This document shows, one piece after another, positions 14,886 through 38,040 of a stretch of 64,000 bases of DNA. A program made the position numbers and the translations under genes. Within the stretch, counting starts at the first letter, position 1. Every line of letters starts with the position of its first letter. Below the pieces are notes generated by a model. The model made no database searches, was not told the DNA's origin, and worked only from the letters and a program-made list of their open reading frames with translations. This DNA comes from a virus: the IMG/VR virus record IMGVR_UViG_3300009164_000039; one strand, written 5' to 3'.

Positions 14886-14888
14886 CAC

Positions 14889-16220
14889 ATGCCTAGATCA
14901 GGACTTACCCGGATTAAGGATAGCGGCACTTGGAAGTCGCTAAAAGGACTTTGGATCAAGGACAAAGGCGCATGGTCGCCTGTTCAAAACGCCTGGACCA
15001 AAGTCAACGGAGTATGGACCAAAGTATATCCTACTCCAATTGCCATTGGGTCAAGTACTCCTACCAGCGCAACGTTTAGTGTTTATACCAGTGAAACATC
15101 TGGGTCACAATCATTTACTATTAACAATACTGGTGACGAAGATCTTATTGTAAAAGCAGTAGCAAATACAGCCACTGGGTTTACCATAAATTTTGACTGG
15201 ACAACATTTGGCGGTGCACCGACTGCACTAAATCAAATTACCATACCTCCAGGCACAACCAAGTCTTTTTCTGTCACTGTCACTGCTGGAGTAAGCACCG
15301 GTGCAAAGTCTGGATCGTTTACATTAACAGCCAATGCAGGTACGCTGGGCGACACTACCATTACTGCAAGTTTGTCAGTAACAGTACTGCAACGATATAG
15401 CCGTGCAAGCTCAGTGGCTTCTTTGAACTTTGCATACGACAGTAACTCAGCATTGCCGGCTCAATTGATACGTATTACAAACATAGGCAATCAAACATTA
15501 AACGTGACCGGAGTAGTTGGAGCAAAGTTTACATACACTGGTGTACCAACAACTATAGCCGCTGGTAGTTTTGCAACATTTACAGCAACGTATATTGCAA
15601 CCAATATAGCTGGTGCCAAATCGGGCACAATAACAATCAACAGTGACAGCGACCAAGGCGCAGTGGTAATTAATTGCACCATGACAGAGGTGCGGCATGC
15701 CACGGTTAGAGATAGTATTGCCGGCACAAGATCGTTTACAGTTCCTTACGGAATCACGTCGTTAACTTACACTCTCAAAGGTGGAGGCGGAGGCGGAGGC
15801 GGCGCAGCCGACAACGAAGAGCCAGTACAACTTGGCGGCGGTGGTGGCGAAGGTGGTACCAGCACAGGTACAATGACAGTTACCGCAGGGCAATCTGTTT
15901 CCTACACAGTGGGTGCTGGTGGTGCTGGTGGCGGAGTTCCTGGAACAGGTGCAACTGGCGTAACATCAACAATGAATTCCACCAATGCACCAGGTGGTGC
16001 TGGTGGTGCCTCCTCGGGTGTGGGCGGCGCAGGCGGTGTGGGTAGTACAAACACCGGCGGTAAAGGCAGTAACGGACAATATTGGACAGATTCATCATCT
16101 GTATCACAAGGTGGCGCAGGAGCTGGAAACGGTGGCGCAGGTGGCGGATATAATGAAAATGCTGAACAGGGATTACCGGGCACAGCAGGCACAGCAGGCT
16201 ATGTGGAAATACGCTATTAA
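14889..16220 (+). CDS. Fibre-associated protein: K..G.W hairpin repeats, two ASH/choice-of-anchor-D-like Ig domains, glycine-rich C-terminal domain
   Basis: 'WIKDKGAWSPVQNAWTKVNGVWTKV'; 'FTINNTGDEDLIV...IPPGTTKSFSVTV'; 'RITNIGNQTLNV...IAAGSFATFTATY...GTITINSD'; 'SFTVPYGITSLTYTLKGGGGGGG...G..GYVEIRY'. Confidence 0.7.
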   Translation: MPRSGLTRIKDSGTWKSLKGLWIKDKGAWSPVQNAWTKVNGVWTKVYPTPIAIGSSTPTSATFSVYTSETSGSQSFTINNTGDEDLIVKAVANTATGFTINFDWTTFGGAPTALNQITIPPGTTKSFSVTVTAGVSTGAKSGSFTLTANAGTLGDTTITASLSVTVLQRYSRASSVASLNFAYDSNSALPAQLIRITNIGNQTLNVTGVVGAKFTYTGVPTTIAAGSFATFTATYIATNIAGAKSGTITINSDSDQGAVVINCTMTEVRHATVRDSIAGTRSFTVPYGITSLTYTLKGGGGGGGGAADNEEPVQLGGGGGEGGTSTGTMTVTAGQSVSYTVGAGGAGGGVPGTGATGVTSTMNSTNAPGGAGGASSGVGGAGGVGSTNTGGKGSNGQYWTDSSSVSQGGAGAGNGGAGGGYNENAEQGLPGTAGTAGYVEIRY

Positions 16221-16250
16221 ATCATAATAATATGCTTTTTAATATGCCCA

Positions 16251-16290
16251 TAAATAACTGTAACCCATGTGCTGAACAAGCAAATAAATA
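16251..16290 (+). promoter_or_regulatory. Two late-promoter cores (TAAATA)
   Basis: TAAATA at 16251-16256 and 16285-16290 in the AT-rich gap before fibre gene 2; SD-like AAGGA immediately before ATG 16315. Confidence 0.55.
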
Positions 16291-16314
16291 CTAGATAAAA
16301 TCGGAGTCTAAGGA

Positions 16315-18783: not shown

Positions 18784-18784
18784 T

Positions 18785-23531: not shown

Positions 23532-24418
23532 AAACTGTAGACATTGCAGACCTAGATGTAATTTTTCTAACCTACGACGAACCTCGCAGAGAAGAGTCAT
23601 GGGCCAAAATCAAAAACATGGTACCTTGGGCCAAGCGTGTGGATGGCATAAAAGGCAGTGATGCCGCACACAAAGCCGCAGGTGCGGCCAGCGATACAGA
23701 TCGCTTTATACTAATTGACGGCGACAATATTCCTGACCCAGAGTTCTTTAACAAACAAATCACACTGGATCCACATCATGAAAGATGTGTGTTGCGTTGG
23801 AGAGCAAGAAACGCCATCAACGGACTCATGTACGGCAATGGTGGACTCAGCTCGTGGACCAAAAGTTTTGTAGAAAGCATGCGCACACACGAAGCCACTG
23901 ATGGTCGTAATGAAACACTGGTGGAGTTTTGCTTTGAACCTGACTACTGGGCCATGCATGACTGCTACTCAACCACGTATCCTAATGCCAGTCCATTTCA
24001 GGCCTGGCGAGCAGGCTTCCGTGAAGGTGTTAAAATGTGTCTGGATCGCGGAGCAAGACCCAACTTGGACGAGTTTGAAAAACGTGCCCACAATCGTAAT
24101 CTTGATCATTTGACCATTTGGCAAAGTGTGGGTGCTGATGCAGAGAATGGCTTCTGGGCCATATACGGTGCTAGACGTGGCACACAAATGACCATGCTTA
24201 CAGACTGGGATTACACCCAGGTACAAGACTTTGATGAACTGGCAAAACTTTGGACTGTGTACCAAAATGACGGCCCTGACGAATGCACTGAAGTAGGCAA
24301 CATGCTACGCAAACGCCTGGGACTTAACATTGTGGATCTAGACCCCGAACCCAGTGCATTTTTCAAACATCACTACAAGTCAAATTTTGTCAATAGAGGA
24401 ATAATGAGTCGTGAGTAA
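23528..24418 (+). CDS. Glycosyltransferase-like protein (GT2-like fold)
   Basis: 'DVIFLTYDEP...RVDGIKG...AHKAA...RFILIDGDN' with DxD; ATGA-coupled to the upstream gene. Confidence 0.6.
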   Translation: MKTVDIADLDVIFLTYDEPRREESWAKIKNMVPWAKRVDGIKGSDAAHKAAGAASDTDRFILIDGDNIPDPEFFNKQITLDPHHERCVLRWRARNAINGLMYGNGGLSSWTKSFVESMRTHEATDGRNETLVEFCFEPDYWAMHDCYSTTYPNASPFQAWRAGFREGVKMCLDRGARPNLDEFEKRAHNRNLDHLTIWQSVGADAENGFWAIYGARRGTQMTMLTDWDYTQVQDFDELAKLWTVYQNDGPDECTEVGNMLRKRLGLNIVDLDPEPSAFFKHHYKSNFVNRGIMSRE

Positions 24419-25793
24419 AAGTGATTTCATGACAGCCGCAGAACAAATGCGCCACACACTAGGCGAAGGTCTTTGCTTGGCCAAATGGAAACAGGTTAGC
24501 TTGCACTTGCCCACAGGATTGAACAATTCATGCTATCATCCTCCACTACACAAGATTCCTGTGGAACTGCTAGCAGGCAATCCTGGCGCACTGCACAATA
24601 CTCCACATAAAAAAGCTCAGCGCAAGATCATGTTGAAACATGAACGTCCAGACGAGTGTAGTTACTGCTGGTCAGCAGAAGACAATGGACAACTCAGTGA
24701 CAGGCACTACAGGTCAGGCGAGGAGTGGGCCGCAGAGGATCTTGACAAGATATTGGCCTCAACCGGAGACGAAGATGCATTACCTAGCTATGTGGAAGTT
24801 AATTTTAATCATGCTTGTAATCTTAAATGTAGCTATTGCAGTCCGCAATTTAGTTCAAGCTGGGCCGCTGAAGTTGCACAACATGGCGGATTCCCTACGT
24901 CCAGCCCTCACAATAGTCCTGAGTATTTTACTGGTAGTCGTCGCCCTATTCCTGCCCGAGAACACAACCCCTACGTTGATACCTTCTGGGAATGGTGGCC
25001 AGAGCTGTACCCCAAGCTAAGACATTTTAGAATGACAGGTGGTGAGCCACTGATGGATCACAATACCTATCGTGTGTTTGAATACGTGCTGACCTTGCCG
25101 CATCCATTGTTGCATTTGGATGTGACCAGCAACTTCAGTGTGGAGCCTGTGTTGTTTGAAAAGTATCTTGGCTATGTCAAACAGTTATGCAACACACAGA
25201 TTGAACACTTCATGCAGTATGTGAGCCTGGACACCTGGGGCAGTCAAGCAGAGTACATACGCAATGGCATGGACTTTGTGAGAGTGTGTGACTATGTGGA
25301 ACGCTATTTAGAGGAAGTACCCAATCGCAACAGCCTTACGTTTATCATGACCATGAACAATCTCAGTGTCACGGGCATGCATGACATGCTGGATTGGATA
25401 CTGGAACTACGTGCCAAGTACAGTAAAACATATCAGCGTGTGTGGTTTGACACACCGTTGCTGAGACAACCACGTTGGCAAAGCCTGCAGATACTGCCGC
25501 CTGCGTATGCCAACAGAATGAAAATAAACCTAGAGTTCATGCGAGCACACCTAATCACAGATGATAGTTTTGTGGGATTCAAAGATTATGAAATACAGCG
25601 CATGGAACGAGACATTGCCTGGATGACTGAGCCACAAGACGCACAAGAAGTCAATCATGCACGTGCTGACTTCTATAGATTCTTCAACGAACACGACCGT
25701 AGACGCGGTACTAACTTTTTACAAACATTTCCAGAGATGAGCCATTTCTGGTGGGAATGCAAACATCATGCCGAAACTGAACAACGAAACTGA
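24411..25793 (+). CDS. Radical SAM protein with N-terminal twitch/SPASM-like domain (1 of 6)
   Basis: CNLKCSYC motif; 'TGGEPL'; N-terminal 'CLAKW...SCYHP...ECSYCW'. Confidence 0.9.
   Translation: MSKSDFMTAAEQMRHTLGEGLCLAKWKQVSLHLPTGLNNSCYHPPLHKIPVELLAGNPGALHNTPHKKAQRKIMLKHERPDECSYCWSAEDNGQLSDRHYRSGEEWAAEDLDKILASTGDEDALPSYVEVNFNHACNLKCSYCSPQFSSSWAAEVAQHGGFPTSSPHNSPEYFTGSRRPIPAREHNPYVDTFWEWWPELYPKLRHFRMTGGEPLMDHNTYRVFEYVLTLPHPLLHLDVTSNFSVEPVLFEKYLGYVKQLCNTQIEHFMQYVSLDTWGSQAEYIRNGMDFVRVCDYVERYLEEVPNRNSLTFIMTMNNLSVTGMHDMLDWILELRAKYSKTYQRVWFDTPLLRQPRWQSLQILPPAYANRMKINLEFMRAHLITDDSFVGFKDYEIQRMERDIAWMTEPQDAQEVNHARADFYRFFNEHDRRRGTNFLQTFPEMSHFWWECKHHAETEQRN
24775..25020 (+). CDS. Overprinted 81-aa two-TM membrane protein (+1 frame inside radical SAM gene 1)
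   Basis: GGAG at 24765-24768, 6 nt before ATG 24775. Hydrophobic segments 'LILIMLVILNVAIAV' and 'ALTIVLSILLVVVALFL'. Local switch of the host gene to T-ending codons. Confidence 0.55.
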   Translation: MHYLAMWKLILIMLVILNVAIAVRNLVQAGPLKLHNMADSLRPALTIVLSILLVVVALFLPENTTPTLIPSGNGGQSCTPS

Positions 25794-27123
25794 TATAGAA
25801 TTCAAACGCAGAGTGATTGACATCAAGTCAACCAGCTTCTGCGGAGCCAAATGGTACAATGCTACCATATGGTTGGGTAGTGGACAAACAACCAGCTGCC
25901 ACCACCCACCTGCACACTCAATTGACTTGCAAGAAATAAAAACCAATCCTGCCGCACTGCACAATACCACTCGTAAAAAAGCTGATCGTGAAATGATGCA
26001 AAAAGGTGAACGCCCAGCAGGCTGTGAATACTGCTGGAAGATAGAAGACATGGGCCCTGAGTCTGTCAGTGACCGTGTGTACAAAACTGTAATACATTCC
26101 GAGGAGGACCTAAATGTTGCATTTGCCAGACCCAGCTACACAGACTTCAACCTTCGCACGTTGGAAATTGCGTTTGACAGAACTTGTCAGTTCGCTTGTT
26201 CTTATTGCAACCCTGCTTTTAGTAGCACATGGGTTAAGGACATTGGTAATAACGGGCCATACACAGGATTGGTATCTGACGGCAGGAACCATTTTACTCA
26301 CGCTCATGATAGTAGTCAACTGTATAAATTCAATGAAGTTAATCCGTACGTGGAAGCATTCTTCCAGTGGTGGGAAACAGATCTCCACCAGACACTAACA
26401 GAGCTTCGCATCACCGGAGGCGAGCCACTCATGTCAGGCTACACCTGGCAGCTGATTGACTGGTTCAAAGCCAATCAAGGCAAGAGCCATACCAAACTGG
26501 CCATCAACAGCAATCTTGGCATGGAGCCGGTCAAGATGCTGGATTTTATTCGGCGTGTGGAAGGTATTCCGCATCTGGAAATCTACACCAGCAACGAAGC
26601 ACTGGGCGCACAAGCAGAGTATATTCGTGACGGATTGAATTACCGGCAATGGCTCAGCAACATGGAGATGTTGATCAATTCAGGCGCAGTAAATCAAATG
26701 CATGTGATGTGTACAGTCAATGCATTGTGTCTGGAAAGCCTGCCTGAATTTTTAGATGAATTGGTTGTGTTGAAGAAAAAGTACAGCAGAGACTTTCCTA
26801 ACTTCACGTTGAACATCTTGCGTTTTCCTAGTTTTCAAAGTCCACTGGTATTACCATATGAGATTAGACAAAAGCATGCAGACCGCCTGGCACAGTTTTT
26901 GGTACGCCACAAAGGACAAAACTACTTGCATGAGCATGAGATAAACCACGTGGAACGTCTAGTAAAGTATTTGCTTGAAGTAGATACACCTCATGCAGAA
27001 GCATTTGAAATGCCTAAATTGTTGAATGACTTCCGACAGTTTTATATCCAATATGATCAGCGCCGCGGAAAAAACTTTGTAAATACATTCCCGGCTCTCA
27101 AGGATTGGTATGAAACACTCTAA
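25768..27123 (+). CDS. Radical SAM protein with N-terminal twitch-like domain (2 of 6)
   Basis: CQFACSYC; 'ITGGEPL'; N-terminal 'FCGAKW...SCHHP...GCEYCW'; close paralogue of 24411..25793. Confidence 0.9.
   Translation: MPKLNNETDIEFKRRVIDIKSTSFCGAKWYNATIWLGSGQTTSCHHPPAHSIDLQEIKTNPAALHNTTRKKADREMMQKGERPAGCEYCWKIEDMGPESVSDRVYKTVIHSEEDLNVAFARPSYTDFNLRTLEIAFDRTCQFACSYCNPAFSSTWVKDIGNNGPYTGLVSDGRNHFTHAHDSSQLYKFNEVNPYVEAFFQWWETDLHQTLTELRITGGEPLMSGYTWQLIDWFKANQGKSHTKLAINSNLGMEPVKMLDFIRRVEGIPHLEIYTSNEALGAQAEYIRDGLNYRQWLSNMEMLINSGAVNQMHVMCTVNALCLESLPEFLDELVVLKKKYSRDFPNFTLNILRFPSFQSPLVLPYEIRQKHADRLAQFLVRHKGQNYLHEHEINHVERLVKYLLEVDTPHAEAFEMPKLLNDFRQFYIQYDQRRGKNFVNTFPALKDWYETL
26114..26398 (+). CDS. Overprinted 94-aa two-TM membrane protein (+1 frame inside radical SAM gene 2)
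   Basis: GAGGAGG at 26101-26107, 6 nt before ATG 26114, which follows an in-frame TAA. TM-like 'LVSSLVLIATLLLVAHGL' and 'YLTAGTILLTLMIVVNCI'. Confidence 0.6.
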   Translation: MLHLPDPATQTSTFARWKLRLTELVSSLVLIATLLLVAHGLRTLVITGHTQDWYLTAGTILLTLMIVVNCINSMKLIRTWKHSSSGGKQISTRH

Positions 27124-28324
27124 GACATTTTGCATATTGCCATGGATACATCTTCATGCATTCCCTGATGGCCGTGCGTATCCTTGTTGTATGGGAGAAT
27201 ATCACTCACCCATTGGCGATCTTAAAACACACACAATGGAGCAGGTGTGGAATCAAGCGCCACTAGCTACCATGCGAAAGAACATGCTACAGAATGTCAA
27301 GTCCAAAGAGTGTGTCAAATGCTATGAGCTAGAAGAAAATGGTTTTGTCGGCATGCGACAAAGCATGAACCGTGCGTTTGCACATCACATGCCATTGGCA
27401 GATCAAACACTTCCTGATGGCACACTGCCTGACTTTCGACTACGCTACTATGACATTAGATTTAGTAATCTGTGTAATTTCCGTTGCCGCAGTTGTGGCA
27501 GTGTGTTTTCCAGCAACTGGTATGATGACGAAGTTGCCGCACATGGTCAAGTACAGCATCCCAAGATCATGTTTGCTGGCCAACACAAACAAGACATGTG
27601 GGAGCAAATGCAACCGCATATACCACATCTAGAACAAGTGTACTTTGCAGGCGGCGAACCCTTGATCATGGAAGAACATTATCGTGTGCTAAAAGAACTA
27701 GTACAGAGAGAAATGTTTGATGTCAGACTGGTATACAACACCAACTTTAGTGAATTAGATTTCAAAGATGAAAGTGTACTGGAGTTATGGAAACTGTTTA
27801 AGAATGTCAGCGTTGGTGCTAGTCTAGACGCCAGCGGCACACGAGCAGAGTACATTCGCAAAGGCACAGTATGGCACAAGATTGTACACAATAGAGAACG
27901 CATGTTGTCTGTGTGCCCTCAAGTTGACTTCTATATAAGTAGTACCGTGGGCATACTAAATGTATGGCACTTGCCAGACTTTCATCGTGAATGGGTTGAC
28001 TTGGGATTGATACGCCCGCAAGATTTCAACATCAACATGTTACAATCACCTGAATGGCAACGTGCAAATCATCTGTCACCGGAGTTGAAACAACAAGTGA
28101 AAGAACGCATACACAATCACCTTGAGTGGCTTGGTCCATTGGATCACATGAATCGTGCAACCAATGGTTATCGGAGTATTATAAAGTTTATTGATCAACC
28201 TGCTGATGCAGATCAACTAAAAGAGTTTTTTAGAGAAACTGATCAATTTGATCAAATACGCAATGAGAGTTTTGATGCTACCTTTCCTGAACTGACTGGA
28301 TTGAGAGACCATGCTACCAAATAA
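27110..28324 (+). CDS. Radical SAM protein with N-terminal twitch domain (3 of 6)
   Basis: 'FCILPW.H...DGRAYPCC...IGDL...ECVKC', then CNFRCRSC and 'FAGGEPL'. Confidence 0.9.
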   Translation: MKHSKTFCILPWIHLHAFPDGRAYPCCMGEYHSPIGDLKTHTMEQVWNQAPLATMRKNMLQNVKSKECVKCYELEENGFVGMRQSMNRAFAHHMPLADQTLPDGTLPDFRLRYYDIRFSNLCNFRCRSCGSVFSSNWYDDEVAAHGQVQHPKIMFAGQHKQDMWEQMQPHIPHLEQVYFAGGEPLIMEEHYRVLKELVQREMFDVRLVYNTNFSELDFKDESVLELWKLFKNVSVGASLDASGTRAEYIRKGTVWHKIVHNRERMLSVCPQVDFYISSTVGILNVWHLPDFHREWVDLGLIRPQDFNINMLQSPEWQRANHLSPELKQQVKERIHNHLEWLGPLDHMNRATNGYRSIIKFIDQPADADQLKEFFRETDQFDQIRNESFDATFPELTGLRDHATK

Positions 28325-29525
28325 CAATATATGTGTGCTACCGTGGATGAGCATAGAAGTAACCCCAATGGGTAACAGTCGCCCGTGTTGTTTGGCCATT
28401 GATGAAATACCAGACAACACTGGTAAATCCTACGACCTTACCGCAGTGCCTATTCGTGAAGTATATCACAGCAAATACATGCAGGATCTAAGGCAACAGT
28501 TTCGTGCAGGAGAAAAACCCAGCACATGCACACGATGCTGGACAGAAGAATCTGCAGGACGTACCAGCAAACGTATGAACATGTTGGCCAAATTCAACAA
28601 TGATATCCAATCAATTGAATGGGACACAGACACCCCTGAACAATTATGGTTCTTGGATCTTAAACTAGGCAACATCTGTAATCTCAAATGTCGTATCTGT
28701 GGATCCTGGAGCAGTAGTAAATGGGCACAAGAAGAACTAGACTACTACCCAACAGCCACTAGAGAAGAACGCAAAAAACATTCAGCGTATGTATGGCTAC
28801 GTCAGGGTCAGTGGCCACGTGAAAGCATTGACTTTTGGAACAACATTGATCAAGTGCTGCCTGGTGTGCGCTACTATGAATTTACCGGTGGCGAACCATT
28901 CTTGATTCAAGAACATTTTGATTTGTTACAACGCACAGTAGATCAAGGCTATGCATATCTTGTGGATGTACACTACAACACCAATGGCACACAGTATCCA
29001 GAAGCCGCAGTGGAGATGTGGAAAAAGTTCAAGCATGTGAACATTGCATTCAGCATTGACGATCTTGGCGCACGATTTGAATATCAGCGTTATGGCGCCA
29101 ACTGGGCAGAAGTGGAACAAAATCTAGACCGTTACTTAGAGTTAAGCAAAACACACACCAACATCACGCTACAAATGTGTATAACTGCAAATATACAAAA
29201 CGTATTGTACTTGCCTGAAGTCATGGACCATGTGTGGGCAAAAGGTTTTCGTGACGTATACATCAACATGTTACATGATCCAATTCAACTCAACATCAAG
29301 CAAATGACTCCAGTGGCGATTGAACTGGTATGTAACAGACTAAATCAAGTTCCGACCAGCAACAGATTCTATCGTGATTTCCAACAGTTAATAACGGTGA
29401 TACAAACAGGTACTGGTAGTGATGGTCAAGAGTTTTGCAAAACTATCAAACAAGGTGACGTGTATCGCAAACAAAATTTTGCTGACCATCACCCAGACAT
29501 AGCAAAGGCCATGGGATATGAATAA
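28311..29525 (+). CDS. Radical SAM protein with N-terminal twitch domain (4 of 6)
   Basis: 'ICVLPW...RPCC...CTRCW', then CNLKCRIC and 'FTGGEPF'. Confidence 0.9.
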   Translation: MLPNNNICVLPWMSIEVTPMGNSRPCCLAIDEIPDNTGKSYDLTAVPIREVYHSKYMQDLRQQFRAGEKPSTCTRCWTEESAGRTSKRMNMLAKFNNDIQSIEWDTDTPEQLWFLDLKLGNICNLKCRICGSWSSSKWAQEELDYYPTATREERKKHSAYVWLRQGQWPRESIDFWNNIDQVLPGVRYYEFTGGEPFLIQEHFDLLQRTVDQGYAYLVDVHYNTNGTQYPEAAVEMWKKFKHVNIAFSIDDLGARFEYQRYGANWAEVEQNLDRYLELSKTHTNITLQMCITANIQNVLYLPEVMDHVWAKGFRDVYINMLHDPIQLNIKQMTPVAIELVCNRLNQVPTSNRFYRDFQQLITVIQTGTGSDGQEFCKTIKQGDVYRKQNFADHHPDIAKAMGYE

Positions 29526-30675
29526 AGTTATCCCGTTGGTTAATGTTAGTGCATTGCAAGCCCTGACGCCCGCACCTCTTGGTCGCGCAGAGGTTGACTC
29601 TGACTACATGACACGGTATATACAAACTGGAATGGATTTTAACAAGGATCTTGGACTAGCAGGCAAATATTGTTATCACCCATTTAACACAGTCACGATA
29701 GACCATCGAGGTCGTTGCTATGTATGCACCTGTCAGGCATGGTTACCAATCAGCGTAGGTAACATTTTAGATTTTAATTCGCTGAGTGAAATTGTTCACA
29801 GCTCACGTGCTAGAGAGATACAACGAAGTATCGTAGATGGCAGTTATCGTTACTGTGACAATAAAACTTGCGGGTTATTAATCAGCGACGCAATGGAAAC
29901 TAGAATTGAGCACAAACCAGACACTGTGAATTGGATCAATTTCTGTATCGATGACAGTTGCAACTTACAGTGTCCTAGCTGTCGCACAGATTTAATATTT
30001 CATAAACAAGGTCCAGAATTTGATCTACGTATGAAAATATCACAGCATGTGAGCAAGCTGATCAGCGAACACAATCATTTTTTACGATTTACACTAAGCA
30101 ACGATGGGGATCCATTTGCTAGTCATGTGTACAGAAACCTAATGACAACTATTGCGCCACAACTGGTCAATCAGCTGGAGATTGAAATAGTAACTAACGG
30201 CATATTAATGAAGTCACATTGGCACGAAATTGAAAACATATACCCTAACCTCACACTAATCAAAGTCAGTTTTGATGCTGCCACCGAACAAACATACAAC
30301 AAAACACGATGCGGCGGCAGTTGGAACAAAGTAACTGAAAGCACTAGATTTGTAGCTGATTGGCTGGCTCAACGCAAAGCACAGCATCTCAATGCATATA
30401 CTAGATTGGTAGCTAATTTTGTAGTGCAACAAACAAACTATCATGAGATGATTGACTTTGTAACACTGTGCAATTCGTTGGGTGTTGATCAGATCTTGTT
30501 TCAAAAAGTAACTAACTGGAATACGTGGATTGATGCCAACGGCACAGATCAGTACAGCGCACATGCAGTATGGCAACAGTCGCATCCTGAATATCACAAG
30601 CTGAAAGAAATACTAAAAGATCCTGTGTTTCAACAGCACAATGTTAAACTAACTAACCTAGCGGATCTACTATGA
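29518..30675 (+). CDS. Radical SAM protein with N-terminal twitch domain (5 of 6), divergent
   Basis: 'YCYHPF...GRCYVCTC...GNIL...YCDNKTC', then CNLQCPSC; the GGE motif is replaced by 'NDGDPF'. Confidence 0.85.
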   Translation: MNKVIPLVNVSALQALTPAPLGRAEVDSDYMTRYIQTGMDFNKDLGLAGKYCYHPFNTVTIDHRGRCYVCTCQAWLPISVGNILDFNSLSEIVHSSRAREIQRSIVDGSYRYCDNKTCGLLISDAMETRIEHKPDTVNWINFCIDDSCNLQCPSCRTDLIFHKQGPEFDLRMKISQHVSKLISEHNHFLRFTLSNDGDPFASHVYRNLMTTIAPQLVNQLEIEIVTNGILMKSHWHEIENIYPNLTLIKVSFDAATEQTYNKTRCGGSWNKVTESTRFVADWLAQRKAQHLNAYTRLVANFVVQQTNYHEMIDFVTLCNSLGVDQILFQKVTNWNTWIDANGTDQYSAHAVWQQSHPEYHKLKEILKDPVFQQHNVKLTNLADLL

Positions 30676-31961
30676 ACAAACCTGATTCGTTATGCTTGGC
30701 TCCTTGGACACACACATATCTTAGTCCGCAGACTGAGCGCCGCATGTGTTGTGCAAGTCGCGAGCCTGCACAAAACTTTCAACAGTATATTGACACCAGC
30801 GCCGGTTCTGGCAAGTATATACCTATCACTCTGGACGAACATTGGAACGGTGACCACATGCGCTCCGTACGAAAACGCATGCTGTCCGGCGAAACATTAC
30901 CCGAGTGCGAAGTATGTAATGATAAACTGTTGAATACCTCTGTGTATAGAGATTACTTCACGCACTTGTTTGCACACAAACTTGACCAAGTACATGCCAG
31001 TACAGATGACACCGGGCACACTACAATGCAACCGATCAGCTGGGACTATAGATTTAGTAATCTTTGTAATTTCAAATGTCGCATGTGTGGAGACATGTTG
31101 AGCAGTGCATGGGAAAGCGAGCAACGTGTACATGGCATGATAGATTGGAACAATCCAAAGAACAACTGGATGAAGCCAGTCATACGCGATGAAATACATC
31201 AGTTTCAAACCACGCAGGTTGAACATGAGTTCAGTCAGGCAGTTGAAGAACATCGTGTTGAGGAGATATATTGGGTGGGTGGCGAACCCTTGATGTACGA
31301 ACAACATTGGAAGTACATGAAAAGAATAATTGAATTAGGGGACGGACCAAATGTCTATGCAAGATATAATACAAATCTCAGCCGTGTTGATTATCGCGGT
31401 GTCAATCTTTATCGGGATATTTTATCTGGGTTACGGGATTGGCAAATCTGCGCATCGCTCGACGGAACAGGTAAAATTGGTGAGTACATTAGATCAGGTC
31501 TCGACTTCGATGCTTGGCTTGAGAACTTCGCTCAAGGAGTTGCGATTGCGACTAATCCTAGACAGATGCGAATCGACTACACCCTTACCCTGCCAGGAAT
31601 GTTTGAGGTTGAACGGATTGAACGACTGTCCGCAACCTACGGAGTACAAGTTCTGGCGAAGGTAGTTTTTAGTTTCAGTCCGGACATAGTTATGTCACCT
31701 TTAGCCCTACCTCGGGACATGTTACACTCTTGGGTAGATGAAATACTTTCTGTGGTGAAGACCGACTCGTTAAAGGATATCTTGGTTCAGCTGAAAACTA
31801 GACCTACGTTTGCGGAACAGTGGCCCGACCAATATCAAACAGCACTGCGCCGTGGTAAAGACCGTGTGTTGAAATTAGAAAGCATACGAGACAATCCTAT
31901 CACAATGGCAGAGATATTGAGTGAACGATCGGATGTATTGCACTGGTGGAATAACATATGA
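30672..31961 (+). CDS. Radical SAM protein with N-terminal twitch domain (6 of 6)
   Basis: 'LCLAPW.H...RRMCC...ECEVC', then CNFKCRMC and 'WVGGEPL'. Confidence 0.9.
   Translation: MNKPDSLCLAPWTHTYLSPQTERRMCCASREPAQNFQQYIDTSAGSGKYIPITLDEHWNGDHMRSVRKRMLSGETLPECEVCNDKLLNTSVYRDYFTHLFAHKLDQVHASTDDTGHTTMQPISWDYRFSNLCNFKCRMCGDMLSSAWESEQRVHGMIDWNNPKNNWMKPVIRDEIHQFQTTQVEHEFSQAVEEHRVEEIYWVGGEPLMYEQHWKYMKRIIELGDGPNVYARYNTNLSRVDYRGVNLYRDILSGLRDWQICASLDGTGKIGEYIRSGLDFDAWLENFAQGVAIATNPRQMRIDYTLTLPGMFEVERIERLSATYGVQVLAKVVFSFSPDIVMSPLALPRDMLHSWVDEILSVVKTDSLKDILVQLKTRPTFAEQWPDQYQTALRRGKDRVLKLESIRDNPITMAEILSERSDVLHWWNNI
31351..31665 (+). CDS. Overprinted 104-aa TM + coiled-coil protein (+1 frame inside radical SAM gene 6), i-spanin-like architecture
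   Basis: AGGGGA about 8-9 nt before ATG 31351. N-terminal TM 'ISAVLIIAVSIFIGIFYLGYGIG'. 4-3 heptad L43/L47/V50/M54/L57/L61/L64/L68. Four Cys in the tail. Confidence 0.55.
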   Translation: MSMQDIIQISAVLIIAVSIFIGIFYLGYGIGKSAHRSTEQVKLVSTLDQVSTSMLGLRTSLKELRLRLILDRCESTTPLPCQECLRLNGLNDCPQPTEYKFWRR

Positions 31962-32719
31962 TATTATTAAGTTCTGGCGATAGCTTTACATATGGCAACG
32001 AGCTCAGTGATGACAACCCTGCACGTGCTAGTAACAACACATGGTCGGCGAACCTAGCAAAACATTTTGGGTTTGAGCACCAGTGTGTGGCCAAAGGCGG
32101 CGCCGGCAACGACTATATTTCTAGATCACTCATAACACAGGCCAATGAACTTCGTAAAAAAAGCAAACAGTTTGCAGTAGCGGTAATGTGGACCTATCCT
32201 GGACGCATTGAATTAAAAGTTCAGTCCGAGTGGCACCAACTAAACGATTATGTATTTTGGGATTCGACTGAAAAACTACAAGCACAGTGGCCCGATAAAG
32301 GTGAAAAATTTTATGCATCAATACTAGACAGAATTCAAAAAGACCGAGAAGCAAATCGATTGGATTTGTTCAGAGACTATATGAAATTTACGGTGTTAAC
32401 TGGTGACTATGCAATAGTAAAATCTTATCAAAGTATATTTGTTACCGCACAATATCTAATGCATCATGAAATTCCTTTCTTTTTTGTAAATGCAGTTGAC
32501 GAGGCAAACATCACTGGAAATTACATACCTCAGGACAGTTTGCCTTACCTGGACAGCATTGACCAGCAAGACTGGATGCCTGTTCCTAGTTTCTATTCCT
32601 GGGCAAAAGAAAATAATTATAAATTTGGGTCAGCACACCCATTGGATCGAGCACACACAGATTACGCTAAACTGATACTAGCTACAGGATTGGTAGAAAC
32701 AAAATGGCAATTAAAGTAG
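31958..32719 (+). CDS. SGNH/GDSL-like hydrolase or acyltransferase
   Basis: Block I 'SGDSFTYG', block II 'AKGGAGN', C-terminal 'HP...H'. Confidence 0.6.
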   Translation: MILLSSGDSFTYGNELSDDNPARASNNTWSANLAKHFGFEHQCVAKGGAGNDYISRSLITQANELRKKSKQFAVAVMWTYPGRIELKVQSEWHQLNDYVFWDSTEKLQAQWPDKGEKFYASILDRIQKDREANRLDLFRDYMKFTVLTGDYAIVKSYQSIFVTAQYLMHHEIPFFFVNAVDEANITGNYIPQDSLPYLDSIDQQDWMPVPSFYSWAKENNYKFGSAHPLDRAHTDYAKLILATGLVETKWQLK

Positions 32720-33798
32720 TATTACGAAACCCATTGGATCAGCAAGATCTAATAGACTATGACATTGTGCCCGATGACACATTGTTGGCACATGACTGGC
32801 AACAGGCACTAAAAGAACTGTTAGTGCAAGGTCGCATGCTGGAAAAGAACTTTTGTTTTCTCGGCTTTCCTGGCACTGCACGTACACTTGATTACATCTG
32901 CAAAGAATTAAACGAATGCGTGTACGATGTCAATGCTATGGATTGGCAGTCAGTTGGACTTGCACCGTATATAATTGAAGAGTGGTTCACACCTGACTCA
33001 GTTAGATTTGGTTTAGAATATCCCTGTGAGCTAACCGATACCAGCCTAGGATTATCAGTCAAACACGAAGTAATGAACAAACTGCACAATCATTTTGAGA
33101 GACTTCAAGGCACTGTATGGTCACCTAGTGAGTATTATACTCAGGCCACTCCAACTGTTAAGTATGCAATTAGACAACTCAACACACTGTGCCATGAAAT
33201 TGAATCTCTGGTGCTGAGCCAACGCAAGGCATATCGTTTGCCAGAATGGGTACGCCCAAGCCAAATTACTACGTTTATCAGCGCACCAAGATACGATCTT
33301 AAAGATCGGCATCGTGAAGGATTTGTTACCAATGGATATGACAGAAAATTTGGACATGTGTACATGCACTGGGCACAAATTGGCAAAACACTGTTTGAAG
33401 TATTTCGTGATGAGCATGCACCAGAACTAACTGATACTGTATGTGAAGCAATCACTCAATTGAAATACTATTCCGGTGAATTTGACATTGAATGGGGACG
33501 AGATGTAGTACGTACAGGCGACTTTCCGTGGCACGTGGAAGAACAGGATCGTTTTGAAAAATGGTTGATACAAAACAACATAGATCCAAAAAATCCTGCA
33601 ATGAGCTCAGGATATTTGCCATTGGGACAGGTAGAATTACAACAGAGTTTTGGCACAACCGATATTGGCACCATTTGGCAAATACTCAGCACACACCTGG
33701 ATATATACAGTATCGAGGTAGACGGAGTTGTTCAAACATATGATTACTGTTGGAGCGATACTGACTACAAGCAGTCGCAGATCAGGAGACTACTATGA
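32704..33798 (+). CDS. Hypothetical protein (364 aa)
   Basis: Long ORF coupled to both neighbours; no motif recognised. Confidence 0.75.
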   Translation: MAIKVVLRNPLDQQDLIDYDIVPDDTLLAHDWQQALKELLVQGRMLEKNFCFLGFPGTARTLDYICKELNECVYDVNAMDWQSVGLAPYIIEEWFTPDSVRFGLEYPCELTDTSLGLSVKHEVMNKLHNHFERLQGTVWSPSEYYTQATPTVKYAIRQLNTLCHEIESLVLSQRKAYRLPEWVRPSQITTFISAPRYDLKDRHREGFVTNGYDRKFGHVYMHWAQIGKTLFEVFRDEHAPELTDTVCEAITQLKYYSGEFDIEWGRDVVRTGDFPWHVEEQDRFEKWLIQNNIDPKNPAMSSGYLPLGQVELQQSFGTTDIGTIWQILSTHLDIYSIEVDGVVQTYDYCWSDTDYKQSQIRRLL

Positions 33799-33893
33799 GT
33801 TGGCTTAAAAAAATATACAACAGAATTAAAATGGAAATTGCTTATCGCAAGCGATTAAAAGAGTTGCGTAAACGAGATCCATTTATCTACTGA
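33795..33893 (+). CDS. 32-aa basic peptide MSWLKKIYNRIKMEIAYRKRLKELRKRDPFIY (not in the ORF track)
   Basis: SD AGGAGA at 33784-33789; ATGA overlap with the upstream stop; TGA at 33891-33893, 1 nt before the next ATG. Confidence 0.7.
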   Translation: MSWLKKIYNRIKMEIAYRKRLKELRKRDPFIY

Positions 33894-33894
33894 C

Positions 33895-34587
33895 ATGAAA
33901 AAAATACTTGTTCTAGCCTGTAGTAGCGGATTGGGCGTCGAATGCGAAGATGTAATCAATCATTGCTGGCCCAACATACTAGGAGACCTTACTAACACCG
34001 CAGTAACCAATGCCTCTGAAGCTGGCGGTAGCAATGACATGATGTATCGCAAAGCACTGTCAATGACTGCAACTGAATCGTATGACCTGGTATTGATTGC
34101 ATGGACAAACATTGATCGCATGGAAGTGTATTTTAACGAAGAGATTGTGTCTAATAGATTACCTGACGTACTAATCAGTGAAAAATTTCCTCGTGTGCAA
34201 GGACCTGGGCCAGTCAGTGTGTCTCATCATTGGAGTGACTTGCCTTGGATTGAAAAATACTATGGCATGCACTATAATGAACGTTACTTACTAGAGCGAT
34301 GGTTGCACCAAGCAATCACACTTCAAGAATATTTCAAAGCCAAAAAACAGCCATTTGCTTACATATCAAACTTTGGAAACACTCAGTATCTAAAAAATCA
34401 TACAGACATTCCTATGTTAAAGATGCTGGATGTAAAATCTTGGATTGGTAACTGGCCTGGGTCAACTTTACGCGACTGGGGTGCACCAATTGGCGTACAC
34501 AAATATGGTCATTTTACGTTAGACGCACATAAATTTATTGCAGAAAAAATACATGAGCATATTAGGAATCGCGGCTGGCTTTCATGA
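33895..34587 (+). CDS. Divergent SGNH-like protein
   Basis: 'LVLACSSGLG', 'NASEAGGSN', 'VLIAWTNIDRME', C-terminal 'GHF...AH'; same layout as 31958..32719. Confidence 0.5.
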   Translation: MKKILVLACSSGLGVECEDVINHCWPNILGDLTNTAVTNASEAGGSNDMMYRKALSMTATESYDLVLIAWTNIDRMEVYFNEEIVSNRLPDVLISEKFPRVQGPGPVSVSHHWSDLPWIEKYYGMHYNERYLLERWLHQAITLQEYFKAKKQPFAYISNFGNTQYLKNHTDIPMLKMLDVKSWIGNWPGSTLRDWGAPIGVHKYGHFTLDAHKFIAEKIHEHIRNRGWLS

Positions 34588-36034
34588 TGCCGCACTAGCG
34601 GTAATTGACAAGCATGGGGACATTGTATTTGCTGGACACAGTGAGCGTTACAGCAAAATCAAACACGACAAAAATTTATCGCCAGGCTTGATTGCCGAAG
34701 TATGCAAATTTGATATACATGAAATAGCATATTATGAACGTCCTTGGGCACAACAGTTGCGTAGATTGTACACCGGCGAAGGAGTAGAGTGGAACAAGCT
34801 CACAGTCCGGCAGATATTAAAAAAACAAATTAACGAGTTCAGTGCATTCTCTGGACCAGTAGTAGCATATCCGCATCATCTGAGTCATGCGGCAGCAGGA
34901 TTTCAAACAAGCCCATTTACCCGTGCCACAGTGGTTGTGATAGACGCTGTAGGTGAATGGGACACAATAACCATCTGGGGCGCAGAATACGATCGCAATG
35001 GACACGCACAGTACAAGAAGTTATGGCAACAAGGTTACCCGCATAGTATAGGATTGTTCTACAGTGCAATGACCCAGCGAGTAGGGTTGAAGCCCCTGGA
35101 CGAAGAATACATTTTGATGGGCATGGCAGCGTATGGTGAGCGTGGCTTTGGTGACCTATTAAAAATGGACATGATAGAATCAGAATTTGACATTCGATTC
35201 AAACACAATCTACACACTGGTATAGATAAAAAATATCTAGCCTACATCAGTGACTTTGATATAGCTGCCGGCGCACAAGATCTTGTGGAAACACTCATAC
35301 TCAATGTTATGCTACGTGCTAAGAAGTTTGGGTGGAGTAGCAATCTGGTGTACGGTGGAGGTGTTGCGCTCAACTGTGCCGCCAATAGATTTTTAGGAGA
35401 ATATTTTGATAACATTTGGATTATGCCTTGTCCTGGTGATGCTGGTTCTAGTCTGGGGGCCGCCGCTGTTAGTTTCCGTGGTTGTATTAATTGGACTGAT
35501 GCTTGTCTTGGGCATGATATACCTGGCGACTATCCTGTTAATGATGCCGTGGCTGCTCTTTTGCGTGGTGATATTATTGGTGTGGCGAGCGGTCGAGCCG
35601 AGTTCGGCCCGAGAGCGTTGGGAAACAGAAGTCTCCTCGCAGACCCAAGAGGAACAGAAATCAAAGACAAAGTAAATGAAATCAAACGTAGACAAAAGTT
35701 TAGACCCTTTGCACCCGTTGTATTGGAAGAGATGGCTGATCAGTATTTTACTATGCCTCGCGGGTGGGATCGCAGTCGGTACATGCAGTCAGTCGCTGAC
35801 TGTAGGCATCCTGAGTTATTTCCTGCTATTGTTCACGCTGACGGAACTAGTCGTGTTCAGACCGTACCGAAAGATGGAAGCGGAATTAGAGAGCTCCTTG
35901 AAAAATGGTTCGTGTTAACTGATTGTCCTATGTTGCTAAACACCAGCCTAAACATACGTGGCGAACCTATGGTCAATGATCGTGCTGACGCAGACCGCTT
36001 TGAAAAGTTATATGGCATAAAGGTCTACAGTTAA
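34553..36034 (+). CDS. O-carbamoyltransferase, NodU/CmcH/TobZ family
   Basis: 'GFHDAA', 'HHLSHAA', 'VIDAVGE', 'EYILMGMAAYG', 'GRAEFGPRALGNRSLLADP', 'FRPFAP', 'HADGTSRVQTV', 'LLNTSLN'. Confidence 0.95.
   Translation: MSILGIAAGFHDAALAVIDKHGDIVFAGHSERYSKIKHDKNLSPGLIAEVCKFDIHEIAYYERPWAQQLRRLYTGEGVEWNKLTVRQILKKQINEFSAFSGPVVAYPHHLSHAAAGFQTSPFTRATVVVIDAVGEWDTITIWGAEYDRNGHAQYKKLWQQGYPHSIGLFYSAMTQRVGLKPLDEEYILMGMAAYGERGFGDLLKMDMIESEFDIRFKHNLHTGIDKKYLAYISDFDIAAGAQDLVETLILNVMLRAKKFGWSSNLVYGGGVALNCAANRFLGEYFDNIWIMPCPGDAGSSLGAAAVSFRGCINWTDACLGHDIPGDYPVNDAVAALLRGDIIGVASGRAEFGPRALGNRSLLADPRGTEIKDKVNEIKRRQKFRPFAPVVLEEMADQYFTMPRGWDRSRYMQSVADCRHPELFPAIVHADGTSRVQTVPKDGSGIRELLEKWFVLTDCPMLLNTSLNIRGEPMVNDRADADRFEKLYGIKVYS
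35406..35675 (+). CDS. Overprinted 89-aa multi-TM protein (+1 frame inside the carbamoyltransferase), holin-like architecture
   Basis: AGGAGA at 35395-35400, 5 nt before TTG 35406. First 60 residues contain no charged amino acid; charged C-terminal tail. Confidence 0.6.
   Translation: MITFGLCLVLVMLVLVWGPPLLVSVVVLIGLMLVLGMIYLATILLMMPWLLFCVVILLVWRAVEPSSARERWETEVSSQTQEEQKSKTK
35676..35918 (+). CDS. Overprinted 80-aa two-TM protein coupled to 35406..35675
   Basis: TAA (35673-35675) is directly followed by ATG (35676). TM-like 'WLISILLCLAGGIAVG' and 'LTVGILSYFLLLFTLTELVVF'. Confidence 0.5.
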   Translation: MKSNVDKSLDPLHPLYWKRWLISILLCLAGGIAVGTCSQSLTVGILSYFLLLFTLTELVVFRPYRKMEAELESSLKNGSC

Positions 36035-38040
36035 TGTATGATGTATTTTATACCGGCACAGCACCTGGCGTGTTTGCACACGAACGCAGTGCCAACAACA
36101 TTGAACACGCACAGCAACTGAGTCGTACACGTTACTTCTGGTGGGTAACTGCACATTGTGACTACACCGACTTTGATTTTTACTTCACACCTGTACCTTG
36201 GCAAGGAGACTTCACGCATGTATGGCCCACACAATGGAAAGAGTTCTTTGGTGCATACCTTGTGCCCACCAACAGTAAACAACTAAACTATCACCACCAC
36301 AGTGAAGTGTTACCTCCGCGGCAGCATCCAGAGCACTATACAAAACTAATCAACTGCGAGTTTGATACTGAGTGGGTTCCGCATCCTTGGGACCCACCTT
36401 ACATCTATGTGTTTGGTAACCAGTGGTACCCAGCAGAGAAAATGCCCACTGTTGAATATCATGCGCCGGGTGCAACTGAGCGCAAGTTCATGCCGTGGCC
36501 ACGTGCGCAACTGGTTCCTGACACTACATTATGGACAGTGCCAGAAGGCATTGATCCCGGCGACGTGGATTTTTCATGGGTGCCCGATCCGGGCTCACCT
36601 CCATATATCTATCAGTTTGCCACACAGCATCAGAAAACAGGTGGCCCACAATATCGTATGCCCGGTGCAACTGAAGTAAAGTATGTGGAACAAGTAAAGG
36701 TACGCACCAGTCGTGTGGCTACAGCCGTTTATGAAATTGATCACAGTGACGGCAACACCGGGTATGTTCCAAACATTACTCGACGTATTCGATTCTTTGA
36801 CAACTACAAGGACACACTGATACGTCTGGCAACCAGTATAGGCGATGAACATGACTTTGTGTGGATATGTAGCAGTGCGTGTGACTACACAAACTTTGAC
36901 TTCACATGGCACCCAGAACAATGGCAAGCTACTATGTTGCATGTGTTCCCAAGCAACGACCAAAAGTTTGGAGACACATTCTTCATGCATGTGCCCACCT
37001 TTAGAGCACGTGCTGAACAGTACGAATTGTTAGATTGGTATGACCTAAACTTCTGCACCGACCAGTTAGTGCCACGCAGACCATTTCCATGTGTTGAATA
37101 TTCTGGATCCAGTGTTGTACCAGTTATTCGCGAGCATGAGTTTTTGGCCCCGTATACGTTATTTCAGCATACCTTGTACAGTTCAACACAAGTACATGCT
37201 AGTCCGAGCCTGTGGAGTAAAAAACACCGTGAACTGATTACATTTAGCGCAGGAAACAGCGCCGCACTAGTGCCTAAAGATGTAAAACAACACCTTGAGA
37301 CACAGGTTTATGACTACCCTTGGATCAAGAAAAGTAACGATCGCTTGCCCGAACTGCCACAAGACATTGTGTTTATCAGTTACGATGAATTGAATGCAGA
37401 TCAAAACTATCACAATCTTGTGAGCCGTTTTTCAAATGCCAAACGAGTACACGGTGTTGAAGGAATGGTTGCGGCACTAGAAGCAGCCGCACGTGCTAGC
37501 ACAACTGATTGGTTCTATGCAGTGTTTGCCAAGACACAGGTACATGAGTCATTTGTGTTTGACTTTGCACCAGATCGTTTCCAACAACCCAAGCATTACA
37601 TATTCTATGCTATCAATGCAGTGAATGATCTAGTGTATGGAGAAATGGGCATCATCTTATACAACCGTCAAATGGTACTGGACGGTCCTGCTGAACTGGG
37701 CATTGACTATACCATGAGCTTTCCAAATGAAACCATACCGCAAATCAGTGCTTACGGTAACTTCAACACAGATCCATATCAGACCTGGCGTACTGCATTC
37801 CGTGAAACTGCAAAACTATGTTTGTTCCAGTATCAGACACCCAGCGTGGAAACAGAACACAGACTTGGTACATGGTTGTCACACGCACGTGGTGCGCATG
37901 CTGAGTGGGCATTGCGTGGTGCGCAGGACGGAAAACAATTCTTTGAAGAAGTAGGTGCAGACGAAGCGCAACTAAAAGCAATGTTTAGTTGGAAATGGTT
38001 ACGTGAACGCTACTGTAGTCTTTACGAAAAAACTTCTTGA
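36034..38040 (+). CDS. Modular glycosyltransferase-like protein (668 aa)
   Basis: C-terminal domain from about 37363 is paralogous to 23528..24418 ('DIVFISYDE...KRVHGVEG...AA.AS.TDWF', 'TWRTAFRE..K'); repeated N-terminal modules. Confidence 0.6.
   Translation: MYDVFYTGTAPGVFAHERSANNIEHAQQLSRTRYFWWVTAHCDYTDFDFYFTPVPWQGDFTHVWPTQWKEFFGAYLVPTNSKQLNYHHHSEVLPPRQHPEHYTKLINCEFDTEWVPHPWDPPYIYVFGNQWYPAEKMPTVEYHAPGATERKFMPWPRAQLVPDTTLWTVPEGIDPGDVDFSWVPDPGSPPYIYQFATQHQKTGGPQYRMPGATEVKYVEQVKVRTSRVATAVYEIDHSDGNTGYVPNITRRIRFFDNYKDTLIRLATSIGDEHDFVWICSSACDYTNFDFTWHPEQWQATMLHVFPSNDQKFGDTFFMHVPTFRARAEQYELLDWYDLNFCTDQLVPRRPFPCVEYSGSSVVPVIREHEFLAPYTLFQHTLYSSTQVHASPSLWSKKHRELITFSAGNSAALVPKDVKQHLETQVYDYPWIKKSNDRLPELPQDIVFISYDELNADQNYHNLVSRFSNAKRVHGVEGMVAALEAAARASTTDWFYAVFAKTQVHESFVFDFAPDRFQQPKHYIFYAINAVNDLVYGEMGIILYNRQMVLDGPAELGIDYTMSFPNETIPQISAYGNFNTDPYQTWRTAFRETAKLCLFQYQTPSVETEHRLGTWLSHARGAHAEWALRGAQDGKQFFEEVGADEAQLKAMFSWKWLRERYCSLYEKTS

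Follow-up and report, generated by a model that had tools for sequence, protein, structure and literature searches.

Can the enzyme genes of a giant phage hide, in a second reading frame, genes for small membrane proteins? The question is raised by a stretch of 64,000 nucleotides from the IMG/VR virus record IMGVR_UViG_3300009164_000039 (here referred to as the window), which is phage DNA and carries, after its tail-fibre genes, a plus-strand operon (24411-38040) encoding six tandem radical S-adenosylmethionine (SAM) enzymes, a carbamoyltransferase and other proteins. An original prediction, made from the letters of the window, had placed five small open reading frames (ORFs) wholly inside these enzyme genes, in the +1 frame, and had regarded them as real nested genes forming a dispersed module, either for lysis or as membrane anchors or partners of the enzymes. 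We refer to the nested ORFs as N1 to N5, to the radical SAM host genes as rs1, rs2 and rs6, and to the carbamoyltransferase host gene as ct. From the comparison with relatives described below, we consider it very likely that the five ORFs are genuine overprinted genes with independent starts, read in the +1 frame from the mRNA of the host enzyme; overprinting as such has been reviewed elsewhere (PMC8227390).

All five ORFs were found at their predicted coordinates on the plus strand, each in the +1 frame of its host gene. N1 (24775..25020, core 24778-24966; 81 amino acids, aa) lies over the CxxxCxxC region of rs1 (24411..25793), an N-terminal-twitch radical SAM enzyme (NCBIfam NF033640, E 2e-95; Pfam Radical_SAM), and has two hydrophobic helices; a Shine-Dalgarno (SD)-like GGAG (24765..24768) was read from the sequence 6 nt before its ATG. 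N2 (26114..26398, 94 aa) lies over the CxxxCxxC of rs2 (25768..27123; the same type of enzyme, NF033640, E 1e-89), and it is a hairpin of two transmembrane (TM) segments, N-in/C-in by its charges, with the SD GAGGAGG (26101..26107) 6 nt before its ATG. N3 (31351..31665, core 31351-31517; 104 aa), in the likewise N-terminal-twitch enzyme rs6 (30672..31961; NF033640, E 3e-85), has a short acidic N-terminus, one TM segment and then a basic, helical tail of variable length, and an SD-like AGGGGA (31337..31342) stands 8 nt before its ATG. The last two ORFs lie in ct (34538..36034), a NodU/CmcH-type carbamoyltransferase (Pfam Carbam_trans_N, E 2e-37, and Carbam_trans_C, E 4e-47). N4 (35406..35675, core 35406-35608; 89 aa) starts with TTG, 5 nt after the SD AGGAGA (35395..35400), and consists of about 60 almost uncharged residues with 2-3 TM segments followed by a charged tail, while N5 (35676..35918, core 35699-35875; 80 aa) is a two-TM hairpin whose ATG directly abuts the TAA of N4. 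The purine tracts were thus present at their predicted places, and the hydrophobic segments were found in all five ORFs, with a mean Kyte-Doolittle hydropathy of 2.15-2.83 in the 19-residue window. A longer version of N1 (126 aa, ATG at 24640) was rejected, as relatives have stops upstream of 24775 (observed/expected 1.25-1.32). For the N3 family, AlphaFold2 (AF2) modelled one long helix only (residues 3-75; predicted local distance difference test score, pLDDT, 63.5), which was uninformative on function.

Could such ORFs arise by chance? The 13.6 kb of the operon hold 7 +1 ORFs of at least 80 aa. When synonymous codons were permuted within each gene, the shuffled controls failed to reproduce them (mean 0.86, or 1.75 in a stricter version that also keeps the base following each codon), and none of 1000 shuffles reached 7; hydrophobic +1 ORFs numbered 6 of the 7, compared with 0.2-0.4 expected in shuffles. 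The rest of the window has 2 such +1 ORFs in 39.6 kb of coding sequence, which makes nine in 53 kb for the whole window. The total of +1 stops in the operon was nearly unchanged from the context-preserving shuffle (248 vs 253.5); thus, stops are not fewer but have been cleared from particular stretches. The other two +1 ORFs of the operon, 27372-27632 (86 aa) in the third radical SAM gene, rs3, and 36362-36679 (105 aa) in g11, a 668-aa gene without a known family, were rejected as chance ORFs, with an observed/expected ratio of 0.96 in relatives. Long ORFs in alternative frames are common in the window, antisense ones above all. For instance, a 335-codon antisense ORF (46321-47328, plus strand) spans nearly all of an AAA ATPase gene (46270-47394, minus strand), and a 179-aa ORF at 19270-19809 (plus strand), inside the gene 18785-20860, is the sole long +2-frame ORF in the window.

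A first set of 80 syntenic IMG/VR loci was collected via ct (62-72% protein identity), many of them on contigs of 300-374 kb, and a second, independent set of 80 more metagenome loci was collected via rs6 (68-79% identity, identical gene sequences removed). For each relative, the expected number of +1 stops was computed from its own amino-acid sequence and the codon usage of the family, and the observed/expected ratio was slid along codon alignments of non-redundant relatives. N2 had 0.23 +1 stops per sequence where 3.59 were expected (ratio 0.06, with 0.97 in the rest of the gene), and it was fully open in 52 of 60 relatives, compared with 0.8 expected. The full-length ORF of the window was open in 11 of 72 relatives for N3, 1 of 80 for N4 and 6 of 80 for N5; these counts are low owing to variation at the C-terminal ends, and only the observed/expected profile reveals the conserved cores. 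In this profile, troughs were found at 26119-26385 for N2 (0.03-0.10), at 31338-31517 for N3 (0.02-0.08, then 0.35-0.6 up to 31637), at 35399-35608 for N4 (0.08-0.19) and at 35699-35875 for N5 (0.17-0.27). Their edges were sharp, with flanks at 0.9-1.5, the +2 frame at the same places at 1.2-1.7 and the remainder of the genes at about 0.95-1.0.

The second set showed the same troughs, with ratios of 0.07 for N2 (35/40 open), 0.07 for N3 (67/78), 0.26 for N4 (30/40) and 0.32 for N5 (28/40), and of 0.95-0.97 outside. Frequent +1 stops in close relatives, which would speak against nested genes, were therefore not what we found at N2-N5. In both sets the +1 frame is open beyond what the host protein and codon usage account for (0.02-0.3 inside, about 0.95 outside), as is expected of an overprinted gene. 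The four-fold degenerate sites outside the ORFs have a pairwise identity of 0.37, which is near saturation, so that the relatives are nearly independent draws at the relevant sites.

As a background, ten genes were examined in their five alternative frames, and their lowest 40-column windows were at 0.44-0.9. The exceptions were the +1 frames of rs6 (0.05), rs2 (0.06) and ct (0.14), and the antisense -0 frames of ct (0.18) and rs2 (0.28). In the window, N2 and N4 have antisense counterparts on the minus strand, ORFs of 92 aa (26110-26388) and 100 aa (35393-35695), respectively. The antisense -0 frame was rejected as the selected one, since TTA and CTA are free before pyrimidines and since the pairs forming TGA are avoided; its depletion is a side effect of TTA/CTA avoidance and not a separate gene.

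On the other hand, depletion was not seen in more distant homologues and paralogues. In the outgroup Ralstonia phage RsoM2USA, gp202 (51% identical to rs2) has several +1 stops in the N2 segment and the ORF is closed. This phage (L081, MG752970, gene 202) is the only cultured GenBank phage with an rs2 homologue, and its neighbouring genes are all hypothetical. For 53 distant ct homologues (40-55% identity, mostly from bacterial records), the ratio was 0.86 in the N4 segment, 0.95 in the N5 segment and 0.94 outside, and the 20 of them with a third-position GC content (GC3) below 0.65 gave the same result. Within the operon, the equally conserved paralogous regions of rs3 had a ratio of about 1, and neither rs3 nor the fourth tandem gene, rs4, showed depletion.

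If the ORFs are translated on their own, their starts should be kept as well. Start codons stand at one or two alignment columns, mostly as ATG and as TTG for N4, and the same column holds the TTG of N4 in 37 of 63 relatives and the ATG of N5 in 46 of 63. Given the host residues, starts occur above expectation (observed/expected 42/25, 48/37.9, 57/46.1 and 55/34.3). SD-like 4-mers at positions -16 to -4, with the expectation taken from resampled upstream host codons, are also kept in relatives: for N2 in 33 of 45 (10.0 expected), for N4 in 40 of 60 (10.8 expected) and for N5, where the motif in relatives is AAGGA, in 46 of 61 (19.9 expected). With a looser set, which includes G-rich 4-mers, extends from -18 to -4 and is counted from the second ATG/GTG column, N3 had an SD-like motif in 44 of 54 relatives (23.2 expected). 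For comparison, 8 of the 19 annotated plus-strand genes of the window and 7% of random positions have such a motif. About 90% of relatives have their last +1 stop ahead of the ORF no more than 5 codons from the start; the ORFs are thus delimited units, which argues against a fusion by frameshifting.

The host genes had also been predicted to switch their codons over these stretches, and this switch proved real and specific to stops, with T at 34-44% of host third positions inside the ORFs and at 24-27% outside. Among Leu, Ile and Val codons inside the segments, A at the third position makes up 5% before a purine (36-39% outside) and 34-41% before a pyrimidine, while G at the third position makes up 2% before A (18% outside) and 31% before G. 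The avoided pairs are exactly those that spell TAA, TAG and TGA in the +1 frame, so that a codon bias alone is not a sufficient explanation. In about 10 independent columns of N2, the permitted synonymous codons vary freely and the forbidden ones are nearly absent (14 stops vs 166 expected).

Beyond the mere lack of stops, the encoded amino acids are under selection. This was observed with TM columns set on the window copy alone and with only those host codons counted that are unable to form +1 stops. Host NCN codons of the relatives end in T, which gives Leu in the +1 frame, in 65% of cases in TM columns and in 28% outside. GGN and CGN codons, which give Asp or Glu when they end in A, do so in 11% of cases in TM columns, 42% in non-TM columns of the ORFs and 27% outside. 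The preference for T held when conditioned on the window having T at the site (0.64 vs 0.40). The best 19-residue hydropathy was 2.4-2.64, compared with 1.64-1.83 in stop-free synonymous resamples. The positive-inside distribution of charges is conserved across the families: the mean number of Lys and Arg residues in the N-terminal flank, the loop and the C-terminal flank is 3.2, 0.4 and 4.3 for N2 and 3.2, 0.4 and 2.8 for N5, and the N3 family has on average 0.2 Lys and Arg and 1.3 Asp and Glu in its N-terminal flank, with a basic stretch after the single TM segment. Selection on the +1 frame is thus seen in its stops, its starts, its SD motifs and its class of residues, and together with the shuffles these support the view of real nested genes.

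The ORFs are not kept everywhere. A minority of lineages are natural knock-outs, in which one segment has collected 4-8 stops, close to the number expected under neutrality, while the host gene is intact; such decayed ORFs beside an intact host gene mean that the host protein does not force the frame open. Each ORF has been lost independently in some lineages, and the dispersed module of the original prediction is thus not supported. Compared with the closest relative, N3 has 3 differences in 315 nt against 6.1% gene-wide, and N4 has 16 in 270 nt (5.9%) against 14.6% gene-wide. Several ct copies deserve a separate remark. In L162 (5035-6519) and L163 (586-2070), ct is a mosaic whose N5 region is 18.5% different from that of the window and has an in-frame stop at codon 17 of N5, which suggests recombination inside the gene. 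The ct of L026 (10001-11485) has an internal TAA at codon 397, within the N5 region, and may be a pseudogene or an assembly error. Four contigs in bacterial metagenome-assembled genomes, L165, L166 (Lishizhenia), L167 (Haliscomenobacter) and L168 (Polynucleobacter), have ct genes 60-71% identical to the phage ct, with the N4 and N5 segments open in two of them; they are probably mis-binned phage contigs, or else weak hints at hosts.

N1 and N2 appear to share a history. They stand in register on homologous positions of their hosts: where the host reads xE(V/I), immediately ahead of CxxxCxxC, both ORFs encode W-K-L, and in each of them the first helix then spans the cluster motif. As they occupy the same place in paralogous genes, they are probably older than that duplication. 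Thus, N1 and N2 are probably one overprint inherited through the duplication of rs1 and rs2 and later lost in several rs1 lineages. The N1 core had a ratio of 0.15 in the metagenome set (21/26 open) and 0.57 in the IMG/VR set (13/26 open, the rest with 2-5 stops), and in most relatives N1 ends about 16 codons before the end of the window copy.

Based on these observations, a mechanism can be proposed. The nested ORFs would be co-transcribed with the tailoring operon and lie in the +1 frame of the same mRNA as the host gene, and ribosomes would initiate independently at the internal SD and start codon. Each product would be a protein of 70-105 residues that inserts into the host inner membrane, with N1 having two hydrophobic helices, N2 and N5 forming N-in/C-in hairpins, N3 being a single-pass protein with a cytoplasmic helical tail, and N4 a very hydrophobic protein with 2-3 TM segments. 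The ORFs lie on the most conserved segments of their hosts (host conservation 0.77-0.82 vs 0.58-0.71), and the structure of the code may explain why. On invariant host residues, positions 1 and 2 of the host codon would be frozen, and these are positions 3 and 1 of the nested codon, while the free third position of the host coincides with the nested second position, on which hydropathy depends. Host codons ending in T could thus encode transmembrane helices without any penalty for the enzyme. This geometry would account for the placement of the ORFs on catalytic cores, for their all being membrane proteins and for the only mild reduction of synonymous diversity. The ORFs would have arisen among the freshwater and marine giant phages of this clade, where they are dispensable, as single lineages have lost them.

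What might such proteins do? Our best guess is that they are accessory factors acting on the envelope and made together with a glycan-tailoring operon, a role that would fit their dispensability in some lineages, the strong SD motifs and the late-operon context. Candidate roles, again as a best guess, are the timing of lysis, the exclusion of superinfecting phages or interference with one of the membrane proteins of the host. We judge obligate enzyme subunits or the core lysis set of the phage less likely than such an accessory role.

The original prediction had first proposed a late-expressed lysis set. In such a set, N4 and N5 would act as holin and antiholin, N3 as i-spanin and N1 and N2 as further holin-like proteins. 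The known overprinted phage genes E, L and Rz1 are lysis genes, and N2, N4 and N5 agree in size, number of TM segments and charged tails with the loose description of a holin, namely a small membrane protein with at least one TM segment and a charged terminus, which fits many small membrane proteins. Moreover, five common endolysin families were not found in five complete relatives, so that the lysis system of the clade is poorly known: of the eight families searched there, seven gave nothing, and candidate endolysins of the glycoside hydrolase family GH19 were present in 3 of the 5, at about 50 kb or more from the operon. Such distant candidates are not the neighbouring endolysin expected beside a holin, and no lysis gene or domain was detected among the window genes scanned. 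The best holin or spanin matches of the nested proteins had E values of 0.46-0.52 (the best PHROG holin 0.52), with no Pfam holin match, and each nested ORF is lost in some lineages. The i-spanin shape of N3 is contradicted by its charges, since its N-terminus is acidic and its TM segment is followed by basic residues, which predicts C-in, the opposite of the N-in/C-out of an i-spanin; in many relatives the tail of N3 ends 20-40 residues after the TM segment, too soon for the long periplasmic coiled coil. Thus, we regard the lysis set as unlikely.

The second proposal was that each nested protein serves as a membrane anchor or regulatory partner of the enzyme in whose gene it lies, in the manner proposed for SxtJ and SxtK. 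Nesting guarantees co-expression, the surrounding operon is sugar-tailoring-like, and there is a precedent in the saxitoxin cluster, where two small proteins accompany the SxtI carbamoyltransferase and have been proposed to act with it (PMC2679770). However, lineages with a decayed nested ORF keep the host enzyme intact. In several of them N4 or N5 is fully decayed (5-8 stops) beside an intact ct, and the same holds for N2 and rs2. As the enzymes persist without the nested ORFs, the products are not obligate subunits. In addition, Pfam matches at E of 1 or better were at noise level, and none was to the SxtJ or SxtK families. We therefore find this role rather improbable.

A different kind of explanation denies that anything is translated: the conserved catalytic segments would favour codons ending in a pyrimidine, either for accuracy in translation or as a result of mutation, and as an incidental effect +1 stops would be lost and the +1 frame would look hydrophobic. 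It is true that the hosts are most conserved where the ORFs lie, that pyrimidine-ending codons are enriched there and that T at the nested second position automatically yields hydrophobic residues. Nevertheless, whether a codon is avoided depends on the base that follows it, in just the way that stop formation demands, the equally conserved regions of rs3 and the same segments of the outgroup ct genes lack depletion, and the TM and loop columns of one ORF show opposite preferences at the third base. Lineages with decayed ORFs, moreover, keep the host protein, and SD motifs and start codons are enriched. A by-product of codon usage is thus very improbable, whether its cause be accuracy or mutation.

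An SD-like element inside a coding sequence can also stimulate +1 frameshifting, as in prfB. A fusion of the N-terminal fragment of the enzyme to a membrane anchor by ribosomes slipping into +1 would share the selection on the +1 frame, but we give it hardly any credence, because the nearby +1 stop leaves a tiny window for the shift, start codons are conserved above expectation at that very point and neither a zero-frame stop nor another pause signal stands there.

Some points weigh against the interpretation of N1 to N5 as genuine overprinted genes. The P values ignore phylogeny. N1 is patchy, being open in only half of the IMG/VR relatives, and the two closest relatives, L162 and L163, whose ct is 90% identical, have an interrupted N5. 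Five independent births in one operon would be a lot, though N1 and N2 probably share one origin. The reduced synonymous variation that the original prediction called for was present, though mild: the excess of codon homozygosity is 0.09-0.12 in the ORFs vs 0.05-0.07, and the four-fold identity 0.41-0.46 vs 0.37. The homozygosity signal is weak because the constraint falls on the class of residue and not on frozen codons. The nested proteins have neither a stand-alone homologue nor a family match in the searches against Pfam and PHROG and with an N2-family profile; the Pfam and PHROG scans of the five peptides gave nothing significant. The N2 profile, run against 1.8 billion representatives, retrieved 32 called clusters, two of which were looked up, one on a 606-nt contig and the other at the end of a 2.1-kb contig, and most likely these two are the same nested ORF called where the host gene was cut rather than stand-alone genes. 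Finally, we infer from the sequence itself that the ORFs are translated.

The surroundings of the nested ORFs are as follows. Five of the six tandem radical SAM genes in 24411-31961 (rs1-rs4 and rs6) match NF033640, the 'twitch domain-containing radical SAM protein' family of NCBIfam (E 1e-85 to 1e-121), and the sixth (29518-30675) matches it weakly; among these genes, only rs1, rs2 and rs6 contain nested ORFs. The same operon holds three proteins without a known family and one DUF6071 protein. It is followed by convergent sugar-nucleotide genes (a DegT aminotransferase, a radical SAM enzyme and a nucleoside diphosphate (NDP)-sugar epimerase/dehydratase), beyond which lie thymidylate synthase and dihydrofolate reductase. 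The operon looks like one for the tailoring of sugars, and such pathways often have their last steps at the membrane. The tail-fibre genes before it (12291-20860) were recognized by PHROG matches, and upstream of them an ORF of at least 3,728 codons (3-11189, plus strand) crosses the 5′ end of the window. A megablast search of the region against GenBank phages gave no match.

Overprinting is textbook knowledge in tiny phages and is usually explained by the size of the genome. Here the phage is a giant one; its complete relatives have 340-374 kb, so that genome compression cannot be the driver. Instead, the structure of the genetic code, in which the second position sets hydropathy, would offer a concrete and testable mechanism of gene birth. 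Standard gene callers forbid nested genes, which leaves a class of phage membrane proteins invisible in catalogues. It is possible, and we put it forward tentatively, that a considerable number of small membrane proteins of giant phages have gone unrecognized, having originated by +1 overprinting where ordinary genes are most conserved. If so, annotation would systematically miss a functional class acting on the host envelope, and no denser example would be known to date than this operon, whose five genes would represent four or five independent births. The clade that keeps the ORFs appears in hundreds of lake and marine metagenome contigs, and the case gives defined targets in its starts, SD motifs, topologies and natural knock-out lineages. 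Our literature searches retrieved no account of nested genes, either for this enzyme cluster or for the biosynthetic genes of jumbo phages.

How do the nested proteins compare with known systems? Like holins of classes I-III, they are phage-encoded, have 70-100 aa, 1-3 TM helices and charged termini; unlike holins, they have no sequence-family match and no neighbouring endolysin, and they are dispensable in some lineages. N4 and N5 resemble SxtJ and SxtK in being two small proteins genetically tied to a carbamoyltransferase. The latter, however, are separate downstream genes without sequence similarity to N4 and N5, which can decay while ct persists. Nested o-spanins are closer in arrangement, with lambda Rz1 embedded in Rz and T7 18.7 in 18.5. 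Rz1, too, belongs to a dsDNA phage and is a +1 ORF fully embedded on the same strand; it has an SD and a start of its own and encodes an envelope protein. On the other hand, the Rz1 protein is a lipoprotein and acts jointly with Rz, in whose gene it is embedded, whereas the hosts here encode cytosolic enzymes, and no lipobox was noticed in the nested proteins, although no search aimed at lipoboxes was made. The overprinted lysis genes E of phiX174, inside D, and L of MS2, across coat and replicase, are single genes with a proven lysis role in tiny, size-constrained ssDNA and ssRNA genomes, whereas here five ORFs lie in one operon of a giant dsDNA phage, on the catalytic cores of enzymes and with no apparent link to lysis. 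With E of phiX174 they nevertheless share the essential design, namely a small protein with an N-terminal TM segment, whose coding sequence has its own start and is contained entirely, in the +1 frame, within a conserved gene unrelated to it, and whose hydrophobicity is written by the third positions of that host gene.

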